Under the pieces are notes generated by a model. The model did no database searches. It was not told where the DNA came from and saw only the letters and a list, made by a program, of their open reading frames with translations. A stretch of DNA of 64,000 nt, from the sequence record MZ892903.1. One strand, 5' to 3'. The DNA comes from Escherichia phage ELT1. This document shows positions 60,672 through 64,000 of this stretch, piece after piece (position 1 is the stretch's first letter; the number at the start of each line of letters is the position of its first letter). The translations under genes and the position numbers were made by a program.

Positions 60672-61652
60672 TTATTTCAGAAGAGTAACCTCAGCAATTT
60701 CTTGCCAACCGTTTTTGTCGGTCATAATAAAGTCAGCAAGATAAAGTGCAGTACGCAGTGAAACATTACGTAAACGGTTAACATTGACTTTCATCCATGA
60801 TAATGCTTTATAAGTTTCTTCATCAGAAAGACCACGCTTTTGCATCATGTCGGTTGAAAGAATAACATCTTCAACCCTGACCATAATTTCTTCATTAGTG
60901 TGAACACCCAAATCTAAATAAACTGAGCGGGACACTAATGCTTGTAAATGTGGAGCAAGTTTAGTACCACGGTCTAATTCGCGGTCAATGTCAACGTTTG
61001 TGATAAAAACAATCGTTCCTTTAAATTCAAACTCACGCTCAATGCCTTTTTCTTCTAAGTAAGAAGATGCGGTGCTCCAGCAGACTTTACGGGTCTCTCC
61101 GGTGTCCAGAGCAGCTTTCAGAAGATTAAGAATGTCCATATCAGAGAAAACATCCACATCATCAATCAAAAGGACAGAATTCTCTTCACGATTATTCCAG
61201 AGCTGTTCATAAAGACCGATACCAGAGATTTTACCGTTAATGCTTTTATATTCAATGTATCCATTATCATTTGCTTTATTTAAAGCTTTATCTAAAGAAT
61301 ACGTTTTACCAATACCCGCCGCACCAGAGATAATTAATGAACGAATGTTTCCGTTAATAATACCATTCGTCATCATTCCCATAACATTAAATCTTTTATT
61401 AATGCGGGTTTTCATATCTTCATATGATTCTTTAACTTCTTCAACTTTTACACCATCATATGAAATGTCTGATTTGTAAACCCAAACACCGCGACGCTTA
61501 CCGTCAATTTCAACAAAAACTTTACCATCTCCTTGTGCATCTACCGGAGCATTATCTGGGAACCATTCGCCTAAGAGCTCAAAAGTTCCAGAGATTTCTT
61601 TACCGAAGTAGATACCCTTATTGATAGTTACAGTTTTCATTTTATTCTCCAA
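60672..61652 (-). CDS. predicted AAA+/P-loop ATPase, 326 aa
   Basis: Walker A GAAGIGKT, Walker B LLIDDVDVF, sensor-like FITN. Confidence 0.55.
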   Translation of the reverse strand: MENKMKTVTINKGIYFGKEISGTFELLGEWFPDNAPVDAQGDGKVFVEIDGKRRGVWVYKSDISYDGVKVEEVKESYEDMKTRINKRFNVMGMMTNGIINGNIRSLIISGAAGIGKTYSLDKALNKANDNGYIEYKSINGKISGIGLYEQLWNNREENSVLLIDDVDVFSDMDILNLLKAALDTGETRKVCWSTASSYLEEKGIEREFEFKGTIVFITNVDIDRELDRGTKLAPHLQALVSRSVYLDLGVHTNEEIMVRVEDVILSTDMMQKRGLSDEETYKALSWMKVNVNRLRNVSLRTALYLADFIMTDKNGWQEIAEVTLLK

Positions 61653-61669
61653 TTTTACATTTGTTTTGA

Positions 61670-61708
61670 TAGGGTAATAGTATCACACTACTACCCTACT
61701 GTAAACAA
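61670..61708 (-). promoter_or_regulatory. T4-type early promoter with flanking inverted repeat
   Basis: GTTTAC (revcomp) 61701-61706, -10 TAATAGTATCAC 61674-61685, AGGGTA...TACCCT palindrome. Confidence 0.45.
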
Positions 61709-61709
61709 T

Positions 61710-61973
61710 TTATTTTAATGTTTGCCAAATTTTTACTGCTTCGCGACGAGATACTTCTACAGCTCCAAGTTCTACAGCTTTTTGGCGTCGCCGAGCGTGT
61801 AAGTCATAATGTTTAATGCGTTTATCTTGAAACCAAGAACGTTTCATTCCTATTGCTTCTGCCATTTTATGAAGCTCTTCAATATCTCCATCAGTGAACA
61901 TATGACAATTTTTAGTTGGATGACCGCGAAGTTTCCATCCATGATTCATTAAAACATCTACGTAAACTGTCAT
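61710..61973 (-). CDS. hypothetical protein, 87 aa
   Basis: ORF track. Confidence 0.45.
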   Translation of the reverse strand: MTVYVDVLMNHGWKLRGHPTKNCHMFTDGDIEELHKMAEAIGMKRSWFQDKRIKHYDLHARRRQKAVELGAVEVSRREAVKIWQTLK

Positions 61974-62188
61974 TGATTCTTCTCCAAATAAGTTTCGATA
62001 ATTTTCTGAGCGAGATAAACTGCATTATCTTCAGTTGCATCTTCTAAGAAACTTTCAAAACACTCTGAAATTTCTTCTGTGTCAATCAACTTTTTTACTT
62101 CAATTGGTGTAATTTTCATTTTGTTTTTCCGTTTAAGTGTTTGTTTTGATAGTTGTATAGTACCATAAAGCTTTATGCTTGTAAACAA
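61970..62188 (-). CDS. hypothetical protein, 72 aa
   Basis: ORF track. Confidence 0.4.
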   Translation of the reverse strand: MFTSIKLYGTIQLSKQTLKRKNKMKITPIEVKKLIDTEEISECFESFLEDATEDNAVYLAQKIIETYLEKNQ

Positions 62189-62200
62189 CTTTGTGAAAAA
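62150..62200 (-). promoter_or_regulatory. T4-type early promoter with A/T-rich upstream element
   Basis: GTTTAC (revcomp) 62181-62186, -10 GTATAGTACCAT ~62153-62164. Confidence 0.45.
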
Positions 62201-62211
62201 TTTTTGAAATA

Positions 62212-62236
62212 AAAAAGGGAGCCCGAAGGCTCCCTA
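62212..62236 (-). terminator. intrinsic terminator
   Basis: GGGAGCC-CGAA-GGCTCCC flanked by A/T runs. Confidence 0.55.
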
Positions 62237-63247
62237 TCATTTATAATAACTTCGGTGGTTTTCAAGATAGACCTTCTCAAGGAAGTCATCCCAGAAACTC
62301 ATGTCTACTGTTTTAGGCATACCGTTCTTAGAAGCTTCAGTAGATGCTGCTTCTACTTGATCGACCACATCTTCCAAAAACTCTTGAACTGTTTTAAATG
62401 GATGTTTACCCAACTTCACGTCGAGAATAAATGGAGCGTCTTGGAGTGGATAAACCAAGTCACCAGTTTTGTAAATTTCCAATAGTTGAAGTCCACCGCG
62501 ACAAGCATGGCTCAGAGCTTTCCAGTCAATACCTTCATTGGCTTCGGCCTTACGAGCACGTTCACCGTATTCAGCATCTAATTTGTTCAGTGACTGCTTA
62601 AGCTCAATAAGAGAAAGAGTTGTCTGATATTTACGACCCAACACTGTGTAAAACGTCTGTGGGCCTGTTTTCTCATGATTATGGAACACCCATTCACAGA
62701 ATTCGTTTTCTGGAAGACGATGCTTAATATCTTCAACTTTAGTGCGGCGAAGTCTATCAGGGATTCCTTCTTGATAGTCGACCCACTGGTCAGGGATTTG
62801 ATTAACTACTTTCAATACATCGCGTAATGCAGCCAAACGAGAACCCTTGACGCCGTATTTAGAAGCTTGCTTGCGGACATATCCTAAATATGATTTCATG
62901 TTAGTCGTATAAAAACGAGAACGGTTGTCTTGAATAAACTTCCACACATCAGGCAAATCAGATTTAACCACTAGTTCAGGTGGAGTGTGAAGCATATCCA
63001 ATGCTACGGTTTCACCATCTGCTGCTAATTTAAAGAAATATTTAAGACTGTATAGTTCATGGTCAATATCATCTTTGGTGTTTTTAGATGATGTGTTGTT
63101 AGTGTTTTTACTCATATGCTCTTTAACATTTCCGATAAGAATATCACGAGCAGGAGGAACAAAGATTTCTTTAAAATCTACATCAGATTCTGGAGTAGAA
63201 GTTCCATAAAGATGACTACCAAAATAAGACTTAACTACAGTTTTCAT
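62237..63247 (-). CDS. predicted Pol-beta-superfamily nucleotidyltransferase, 336 aa
   Basis: N-terminal GSHLYGTSTPESDVDF (GS...DxD) plus downstream acidic residue; helical C-terminal region. Confidence 0.45.
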   Translation of the reverse strand: MKTVVKSYFGSHLYGTSTPESDVDFKEIFVPPARDILIGNVKEHMSKNTNNTSSKNTKDDIDHELYSLKYFFKLAADGETVALDMLHTPPELVVKSDLPDVWKFIQDNRSRFYTTNMKSYLGYVRKQASKYGVKGSRLAALRDVLKVVNQIPDQWVDYQEGIPDRLRRTKVEDIKHRLPENEFCEWVFHNHEKTGPQTFYTVLGRKYQTTLSLIELKQSLNKLDAEYGERARKAEANEGIDWKALSHACRGGLQLLEIYKTGDLVYPLQDAPFILDVKLGKHPFKTVQEFLEDVVDQVEAASTEASKNGMPKTVDMSFWDDFLEKVYLENHRSYYK

Positions 63248-63431
63248 TATTCCACCTAATCATTTCAAGATATTGAACTAACTTAGCTTTAGATTTATCC
63301 AAATCCTTTTTAGCTGCTTCTATACCGTCGTATGAATATCCTTCACAATGCTCAACTGCCAATTGGTATGAATCTATTTCAACATCACGTGCTAATTTAA
63401 TGATTTTTTCAAACTGTTCACGTGTTAACAT
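63231..63431 (-). CDS. hypothetical protein, 66 aa
   Basis: ORF track. Confidence 0.4.
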   Translation of the reverse strand: MLTREQFEKIIKLARDVEIDSYQLAVEHCEGYSYDGIEAAKKDLDKSKAKLVQYLEMIRWNNENCS

Positions 63432-63433
63432 AC

Positions 63434-63652
63434 TTAAACTCTCGTATTATGATCAATAATTTCATCAAGAAACATATCTAACGCTTCTACAGCATTATCA
63501 ACTTTAGCTTCAAATTCTTCAATACCTGATAAGGCAAAGTTAATGCGTTCCTCATCTGCTTTACGAATTAAAGCTACCAATTCTTTAATCTTATCCGCTT
63601 GTTCGATACTAATCATTATTCCACCACATATGAAAGAGAGAATATTGCACAC
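63434..63652 (-). CDS. hypothetical protein, 72 aa
   Basis: ORF track. Confidence 0.4.
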
Positions 63653-63849
63653 GCCATATGAGTTGCAGCTTCATCACACATATCATAACGTTTCTTAAGA
63701 AGTTCTACAAGTTCTTCACTAGTGACTTCATCCATGTCGACGAAAAAATCACCATTAATGATGACGTAGATATTTCCTTCTTGATTAAGTGCTTCAATTT
63801 TCATGATGTTCTCCTCTTTATCCGATAGTTGTATAGTACCACAGCTCAA
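63616..63849 (-). CDS. hypothetical protein, 77 aa
   Basis: ORF track. Confidence 0.4.
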
Positions 63850-63866
63850 ACGGAAAGTAAACCGGT
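63828..63866 (-). promoter_or_regulatory. T4-type early promoter
   Basis: GTTTAC (revcomp) 63858-63863, -10 GTATAGTACCAC 63830-63842. Confidence 0.45.
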
Positions 63867-63875
63867 AAAATGAAA

Positions 63876-63897
63876 AAAGTCTCCCGAAGGAGACTAA
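63876..63897 (-). terminator. intrinsic terminator
   Basis: AGTCTCC-CGAA-GGAGACT flanked by A/T runs. Confidence 0.5.
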
Positions 63898-63899
63898 TG

Positions 63900-64000
63900 T
63901 TATTCGAGGGAAAGAAGATACTTACTCTGGTAAAACATTCCAGTAATATCATCTATCGTGCTTTGGATGGCTGGAGGCATTTCTTTATAAATGCTGTTAG
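63900..64000 (-). CDS. 3' end of a gene continuing beyond the right edge (partial)
   Basis: open frame ending ...[12 protein letters not shown]-stop at 63900-63902, followed by terminator. Confidence 0.3.

Follow-up and report, generated by a model that had tools for sequence, protein, structure and literature searches.

Escherichia phage ELT1 encodes, on the minus strand at positions 62237-63247 of the 64,000 nt stretch analysed here (sequence record MZ892903.1, hereafter the window), a protein that by its sequence is a catalytically intact nucleotidyltransferase of the Pol-beta superfamily, belonging to the RlaP family (PF10127) via its N-terminal core. The open reading frame (ORF) is, on the same kind of evidence, the ortholog of phage T4 nrdC.11 and an accessory early gene of a Tequatrovirus, from which the stretch originates. 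From the catalytic core, the family link, a confidently predicted fold and the RNA repair context of relatives we infer a substrate and a biological role: with moderate confidence we favour NrdC.11 as an active RNA 3'-end nucleotidyltransferase, which would restore nucleotides trimmed from cleaved tRNAs before these are sealed by Rnl1. Since the gene is known and annotated in databases and its family assignment has been published, the finding as such is already known, and our analysis constitutes a confirmation rather than a discovery.

Gene identity, family and catalytic residues

A preliminary description made from the sequence alone had pointed to this ORF, leaving its strand unnamed. The ORF is real, a single long reading frame from ATG to stop on the minus strand, encoding 336 amino acids (aa) plus the stop codon. 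Its protein is 100% identical to a protein of Escherichia phage HY03, designated 'nucleotidyltransferase' in RefSeq, and shares 96% identity with T4 NrdC.11 across all 336 aa. At the DNA level, positions 61600-64000 display 96.8% identity to Escherichia phage HY03 and 96.0% identity to the T4 nrdC.11/mobD region over the shared 79%. Homologs were found in 1518 of 50,697 phage records, with the full-length protein being conserved, and in 3486 clusters at 50% identity, 835 of them with E<=1e-30. The best 150 homolog clusters gave nearly exclusively full-length matches of about 300-350 aa.

The protein begins MKTVVKSYFGSHLYGTSTPESDVDF, and the GS...DxD signature quoted from its N-terminus, corresponding to aa 8-25, could be confirmed as well. 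It goes beyond a chance resemblance: the Pfam family RlaP matches aa 7-135 with 43.6 bits against a gathering threshold of 23 (E=3.9e-11), covering profile positions 24-143 of 249, while PHROG 388, 'nucleotidyltransferase', matches NrdC.11 end to end with E=1.8e-136. The interpretation of the ORF as a nucleotidyltransferase is thus supported. RlaP was reportedly defined by Burroughs & Aravind in 2016 (cited in PMC12776372 and PMC7824862). PF10127 carries the name 'RNA-ligase-associating Pol-beta' as well as the Pfam description 'RNA repair pathway DNA polymerase beta family'.

To judge conservation, we aligned the ELT1 protein to representatives of 75 diverse clusters (34-54% identity), and the RlaP profile matches each of these 76 sequences (best E 2.2e-19). 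Invariant throughout are G10, S11, G15, S21, D22, D24, N56, D62, Y131, R230, K243, H247, R250 and P267. They comprise the 'GS' motif of Pol-beta nucleotidyltransferases (G10-S11, within F9-G10-S11; 63215-63220, minus strand) and both aspartates of the metal-binding DxD motif (D22-V-D24; 63176-63184, minus strand), which align with D39/D41 of canonical RlaP. D62 (63062-63064, minus strand), placed by hhalign onto the invariant D72 of canonical RlaP, is the putative third catalytic carboxylate. The features by which the Pol-beta superfamily is recognised, the hG[GS] motif, the [DE]x[DE] pair, a third carboxylate (presumably D62) and the alpha/beta nucleotidyltransferase fold, are hence found in NrdC.11.

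This conservation bears on the notion that NrdC.11 is a catalytically dead protein, or a structural or regulatory remnant, kept by chance in a hyperplastic region. The gene does reside in the variable nrdC-rI region, which features many small unknown ORFs and mobile endonuclease insertions, and it is dispensable in the laboratory, since a viable genome-reduced T4 can lose the nrdC.11-mobD.3 segment (PMC9825161). However, the catalytic and several C-terminal residues are invariant down to 34% identity in a family spread over the 1518 phage records and 3486 clusters, and we consider a remnant very improbable. Dispensability in T4 is also what would be expected of a conditional counter-defence gene.

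Predicted fold and competing activities

The AlphaFold2 model obtained from the 76-sequence alignment is confident, with a predicted local distance difference test score (pLDDT) of 94 and a predicted template modelling score (pTM) of 0.84. It displays the expected Pol-beta layout: GS is located where strand 1 ends and helix 11-14 begins, D22/D24 at the start of strand 2 (aa 23-30) and D62 on strand 61-67. The preliminary description had called for a structure prediction and named a fold lacking a nucleotidyltransferase core as what would refute it. The model contains such a core, an N-terminal alpha/beta unit of about aa 1-112 (62912-63247, minus strand), and the interpretation therefore stands. 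Behind the N-terminus a helical region of ~250 aa had been proposed, which holds for the helices 68-149 and 213-335 but not for the stretch between them, where the model shows a five-strand beta-rich segment at aa 154-208 (62624-62788, minus strand; strands 154-159, 162-168, 184-191, 195-202 and 205-208; block pLDDT 88-98). This segment possibly takes part in substrate recognition. The C-terminal helical bundle at aa 213-335 (62243-62611, minus strand) carries the invariant residues R230, K243, H247, R250 and P267. As a whole, the model combines the nucleotidyltransferase core with a helical bundle, a terminal helix of considerable length (316-335) and the beta-rich insert. In BFVD, viral nucleotidyltransferases of shorter length (220-290 aa) align lengthwise with the model at template modelling (TM) scores of 0.5-0.7, which fits, without proving it, the picture of an RlaP plus an insertion.

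Biochemical reference for the family comes from a preprint of December 2025 by Carruthers, Fatma and Huang, who studied two Pseudomonas RlaPs from rtcB-rlaP-rtcA operons. Their crystal structure of PfRlaP has a nucleotidyltransferase domain and a helical one, with the terminal helix returning to pack against the core (PMC12776372). When the NrdC.11 clade was aligned to canonical RlaPs with hhalign, a probability of 92.6% and an E of 4.6e-7 were obtained over the N-terminal 84 columns only, with GS and DxD aligned and D62 on D72. We also tested whether the C-terminal half corresponds to the helical domain of RlaP, interrupted by an insertion. Even with aa 136-235 deleted, hhalign gave nothing significant beyond the N-terminal core, so that this idea was not adopted and stays a conjecture. 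The best non-significant alignment places R250 on canonical R156 and shares a K-x3-[H/Y]-x2-R motif (K243/H247/R250 versus K149/Y153/R156), a hint of C-terminal kinship that is suggestive only.

Searches against other families of the superfamily gave little. NCBIfam yielded no usable assignment: for its MntA model NF047752, which has a cut-off of 60 bits, the match reached 13.1 bits and spanned 18 residues. Pfam NTP_transf_2 remained below threshold (13.7 bits, cut-off 21). At E<=1, none of the PADLOC defence models (CD-NTase/CBASS, HalB and others) matched, nor did any CCA-adding/PolyA_pol-type head domain in Pfam. When the PDB was searched by sequence, neither the protein nor the family profile nor the canonical RlaP profile retrieved anything meaningful from a copy that lacks the PfRlaP crystal structure.

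These data have to be set against the possibility that NrdC.11 nucleotidylylates a protein or a small molecule, be it as an MntA-type antitoxin AMPylating HEPN RNase toxins or as an aminoglycoside/lincosamide nucleotidyltransferase of the KNTase or LinB type. Its structural neighbours include KNTase/ANT(4'), LinB and MNT-HEPN complexes, a weak resemblance to helical domains of the HEPN type is seen in the C-terminal bundle, and the faint MntA match coincides with the GS..DxD segment. Yet that match and the one to NTP_transf_2 are both sub-threshold, the Pseudomonas RlaPs left E. coli proteins unlabelled (PMC12776372), and what the gene neighbourhoods of relatives contain is RNA repair genes instead of HEPN toxins or a setting of antibiotic resistance, which leaves such an activity improbable. 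Equally small is the probability we assign to NrdC.11 making a free oligonucleotide or nucleotide as signal or decoy in the manner of HalB of the Hailong system, the product of which could manipulate a host defence pathway. The likeness to HalB (15% identity, TM about 0.24-0.36, Foldseek E 2.6e-3) is that of a generic nucleotidyltransferase core, and the PADLOC search gave no match. By sequence, NrdC.11 falls into RlaP and into neither HalB nor CD-NTase, and no link to signalling effectors was found in the neighbourhoods.

RNA repair context and proposed role

The Pseudomonas RlaPs add 1-2 nucleoside monophosphates template-independently to an RNA 3'-OH, with any nucleoside triphosphate (NTP) and also dATP being accepted, in a Mn2+-dependent reaction in which Mn2+ is the preferred ion and for which DNA and protein are not substrates (PMC12776372). 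With a tRNA mimic cleaved at the anticodon, the 5' half is the preferred substrate, and for a tRNA short of one nucleotide in the anticodon loop the enzymes restore aminoacylation in part (PMC12776372).

We explored the surroundings of full-length relatives at 79 viral and 80 bacterial or archaeal loci, where flanks of 10 kb and 6 kb, respectively, were searched with T4 Rnl1, Rnl2 and Pnkp and with Pfam; the distant relatives of the same clade are full-length at 31-48% identity. At the distant viral loci (39-48% identity), Rnl1 and/or Pnkp-type genes lie within 10 kb in 11 of 32 cases, without exception in same-strand orientation; an adjacent canonical RlaP occurs at none of the 32. At least 17 of the 80 bacterial and archaeal loci have an RNA repair gene within 6 kb, again always on the same strand, namely a Pnkp-type kinase-phosphatase-ligase, a kinase-phosphatase-Rnl1 fusion or Ro60. 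The recurrence list of 109 upstream neighbours is led by AAA_33 kinase, PNKP_ligase, Ro60/TROVE, Metallophos, RtcB and RtcA, with Hen1 and Rnl1 occurring once each. Distant members of the long-form clade are thus linked to RNA end-healing and sealing genes.

The commonest bacterial partner is a canonical, full-profile RlaP of ~255 aa, which is encoded immediately downstream on the same strand at 26 loci and within about 4 kb at 2 more, i.e. at 28 of the 80 loci, 71 of which contain enough downstream sequence to judge. The paired genes often lie behind a Pnkp-type kinase-phosphatase-ligase or Ro60 gene (for instance L087 5266-6979, L131 3338-7802 and L160 3384-7802). Such an arrangement points either to a heteromer or to two RlaP paralogs that do not duplicate each other. 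No canonical RlaP partner is present at any of the 79 viral loci, and T4-type phages carry only the long form.

In five of the 11 distant viral loci (L074/76/77 and L080/81), the genes form tight cassettes in which a fusion of an HD-phosphohydrolase with a P-loop kinase is followed by an Rnl1-type ligase and the nucleotidyltransferase. These cassettes, compact and with all genes on the same strand, reside on contigs of uncultivated phages (e.g. L077 1707-5265 and L081 6856-10933). The HD-phosphohydrolase fused to the P-loop polynucleotide kinase constitutes an alternative to the HAD phosphatase of T4 Pnkp. Just downstream of the cassettes, on the opposite strand, we additionally observed a conserved ORF of ~338 aa without a Pfam match, and in L080 and L081 the nucleotidyltransferase is followed by a 252-aa ORF likewise without a Pfam match.

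We therefore propose a model in which NrdC.11 acts between the healing and the sealing of broken tRNAs. During infection, tRNA 5' fragments would lose nucleotides, the model case being the wobble base excised by RloC-type anticodon nucleases. The phage Pnkp would first heal the 3' end, NrdC.11 would then lengthen the trimmed 5' fragment at its 3'-OH by one or two nucleotides, and Rnl1 would reseal an anticodon loop of full length, by which some functional tRNA would be regained. T4 carries the partner enzymes Pnkp, Rnl1 and Rnl2. In this model, NrdC.11 would extend the classic T4 Pnkp/Rnl1 counter-defence to nucleotide-excising ribotoxins.

A number of observations weigh against this model. 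Because RlaP has little NTP specificity, most repaired tRNAs would bear a wrong or unmodified base. None of the 47 T4-type viral loci (>=50% identity) has an RNA repair gene within 10 kb or an adjacent canonical RlaP, and Rnl1, Rnl2 and Pnkp were not found in the ELT1 window. T4 pseT, rnlA and rnlB lie 50-80 kb from nrdC.11, and most neighbourhoods of the long-form clade are without a recognisable RNA repair gene. A match to the whole RlaP profile, including the C-terminal helical domain, was not obtained either, C-terminal fragments aligning in hhalign at E 0.17-0.28, and since kinship with the characterised RlaPs can be detected no further than the N-terminal ~90-135 residues, the choice of substrate could differ. 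Long form and canonical RlaP are, because of their pairing in bacteria, probably not interchangeable. Finally, T4 NrdC.11, which the preprint places in PF10127, similarity-network cluster 5, is termed there an RlaP 'of unknown function' (PMC12776372).

Some of these points would also be in line with an RNA 3'-end enzyme serving another job, such as CCA-like repair of phage or host tRNAs or the tailing of RNAs for decay or stability. Fold and catalytic residues are the same as in any RNA-tailing Pol-beta enzyme, nrdC.11 is unlinked to ligase or kinase genes in T4-type genomes, and labelling by the Pseudomonas RlaPs extends to full-length tRNA, single-stranded RNAs and species of rRNA size (PMC12776372). 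What renders this alternative unlikely is that no CCA-adding or poly(A) polymerase family is matched at E<=1 in Pfam and that the relatives occur with end-healing and sealing enzymes, which 3'-terminal tailing would not need. The dependence of T4 tRNAs without an encoded CCA on the host's cca enzyme for their maturation speaks against a phage enzyme that adds CCA efficiently. Each of the four alternatives, the remnant, the nucleotidylylation of proteins or small molecules, the HalB-like product and the RNA-tailing enzyme, has less support than the repair of trimmed tRNAs.

More tentatively, the long form could constitute a functionally distinct branch of RlaP and not just a diverged copy, in which the beta-rich module and the C-terminal bundle confer a substrate or nucleotide specificity of its own. 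Bacteria maintain it next to a canonical RlaP in RNA repair operons of the Pnkp, Ro60 or RtcB type, whereas the T4-type phages have the long form only. It might then be the missing phage answer to wobble-nucleotide-excising anticodon nucleases such as RloC. We rate this reading as less likely than not.

RNA repair as a counter-defence of viruses has its founding example in the T4 Pnkp/Rnl1 pathway. RloC cuts out the wobble nucleotide and leaves a lesion that was proposed to defeat this pathway (PMC2610378). If NrdC.11 indeed restores the excised nucleotide, T4-type phages would possess a three-enzyme repair pathway and a gene of about 1500 sequenced phages would gain a function. If the long form is a distinct branch with this role, it would become directly testable whether the RloC lesion is reversible by phages competent for repair, a question of Davidov & Kaufmann 2008. 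Beyond the known family assignment, interest therefore resides in the function of NrdC.11, the pairing of long-form and canonical RlaP in bacteria and the kinase-ligase-nucleotidyltransferase cassettes of phages, which may guide biochemistry on the family.

Transcription unit and comparison with known systems

The preliminary description had ascribed to the gene a promoter and a terminator of its own, of which only the terminator was borne out. It is an intrinsic terminator at 62210-62235 (minus strand), in which an 8-bp GC-rich hairpin (AGGGAGCC-TTCG-GGCTCCCT, 62235-62216) is followed by TTTTTT, and begins 2 nt past the stop codon, marking the end of the operon. The terminator scan returned only one other terminator-like site on the minus strand within 2.4 kb, and T4 has an identical hairpin, with an adjoining terminator annotated in the T4 record U76612. 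Matches resembling sigma-70 promoters within and upstream of the gene are at background level (15 versus 8.4+/-3.0 in shuffles). Since only weak 9/12 matches at background frequency were found, a promoter directly 5' of nrdC.11 was rejected in favour of a shared early promoter. The nearest credible one is a T4-type early promoter at 63833-63862 (minus strand; -35 GTTTAC 63862-63857, -10 TACTAT 63838-63833 with TGG before the -10 box), 585 nt upstream of nrdC.11, which aligns onto the 'early promoter 57.9' annotated in T4 and, with a score of 8/12, lies under the threshold of our promoter scan. A further minus-strand terminator is located upstream of it at 63895-63878.

Between this promoter and nrdC.11, three small co-transcribed ORFs were identified on the minus strand by protein sequence as T4 mobD.6 (63616-63804), mobD.5 (63434-63616) and mobD.4 (63231-63431). 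Stop and start of mobD.6 and mobD.5 overlap as TAATG, and mobD.4 overlaps nrdC.11 by 17 nt. A Shine-Dalgarno sequence, AGGTGG, can be read 4 nt 5' of the nrdC.11 ATG (63257-63252, minus strand). The early promoter most likely drives mobD.6-mobD.5-mobD.4-nrdC.11, and on the grounds of this shared promoter, the three overlapping or abutting upstream ORFs and the flanking terminators, nrdC.11 can be considered the last gene of a four-gene early operon between two terminators. mobD.4 and mobD.5 are paralogs, both matching Pfam DUF7438 (E 1.7e-17 and 2.1e-13).

Names given to these genes in databases should be read with care. Many records label NrdC.11 homologs 'thioredoxin' or 'HNH homing endonuclease', and the mobD.5 homolog in HY03, a protein of 67 aa, is entered in RefSeq as 'molybdopterin-guanine dinucleotide biosynthesis protein MobD'. 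We rejected these labels, which look like errors of name propagation from the T4 locus names nrdC.x and mobD.x.

The next operon downstream holds the nrdC.10 homolog (60672-61652, minus strand, 326 aa), which adjoins nrdC.11 in T4. It features a P-loop, GAAGIGKT, and a Walker-B-like LLIDDVD; its Pfam matches to STAND/AAA NTPases are all sub-threshold, the best being nSTAND3 with 22.3 bits against a cut-off of 27.2. Between nrdC.10 and nrdC.11 lies a 493-bp segment (61653-62145), which has the same layout in phage HY03 and comprises a DUF4031 ORF (61710-61973, Pfam E 1.6e-21) and an overlapping ORF of 49 aa (61970-62119). On either side there are T4-type early promoters with TG-extended -10 boxes (minus strand, 62185-62157 and 61705-61677).

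In comparison to the T4 locus, nrdC.11 is in both phages found downstream of mobD.x genes and upstream of nrdC.10, with the same terminator hairpin. The fourteen amino-acid differences between the two NrdC.11 proteins mostly cluster at aa 161-165 and 311-313. T4 lacks the 493-bp segment with the DUF4031 gene, whereas it carries, directly upstream of nrdC.11, a 1.7-kb cassette of mobD.3, mobD.2, mobD.1 and mobD, the latter an HNH homing endonuclease (locus L001, 4177-5876), which is missing in ELT1. At the junction (63231-63257), ELT1 mobD.4 ends in ...MIRWNNENCS and overlaps nrdC.11, while T4 mobD.4 ends in ...NNEN and T4 mobD in ...NNENCS. A short duplicated coding stretch thus flanks the T4 insertion, and ELT1 therefore looks like the 'empty site' for a freestanding endonuclease cassette.

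Among other Pol-beta enzymes, HalB of the Hailong system (PDB 9dbh/9dbj) is a minimal enzyme of ~217 aa that makes oligodeoxyadenylate within a defence system and shares neither the C-terminal module nor a sequence-family link with NrdC.11. KNTase/ANT(4') and LinB, at 8-11% identity and without a Pfam match, act on small molecules and occur in an unrelated genomic context. CCA-adding enzymes, terminal uridylyltransferases (TUTases) and poly(A) polymerases perform template-independent addition to an RNA 3'-OH with a two-metal Pol-beta core, and NrdC.11 probably works in this manner; it differs from them in lacking a sequence-family match and in its domains outside the core, TUTase/Cid1 structures matching at low probability only.

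The closest comparison is provided by the RlaPs of Pseudomonas fluorescens and P. aeruginosa from the rtcB-rlaP-rtcA operon (PMC12776372). They belong to the same Pfam family, with GS, DxD and the third aspartate aligned, and the model of NrdC.11 predicts a similar combination of an N-terminal nucleotidyltransferase domain with a C-terminal helical domain ending in a long last helix. RNA ligase and end-healing genes, the neighbours to which the family owes its name, occur near distant relatives of NrdC.11 and not in the ELT1 window or at the 47 T4-type loci. NrdC.11 is, however, about 80 residues longer than the canonical RlaP of ~255 aa, possesses a conserved loop (N56, D60) before the third aspartate and contains the beta-rich segment which canonical RlaPs lack. 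In the similarity network it falls into cluster 5, in contrast to cluster 1a for the Pseudomonas RlaPs under study (PMC12776372), and in bacteria the long form occurs alongside the canonical RlaP and not in its place.

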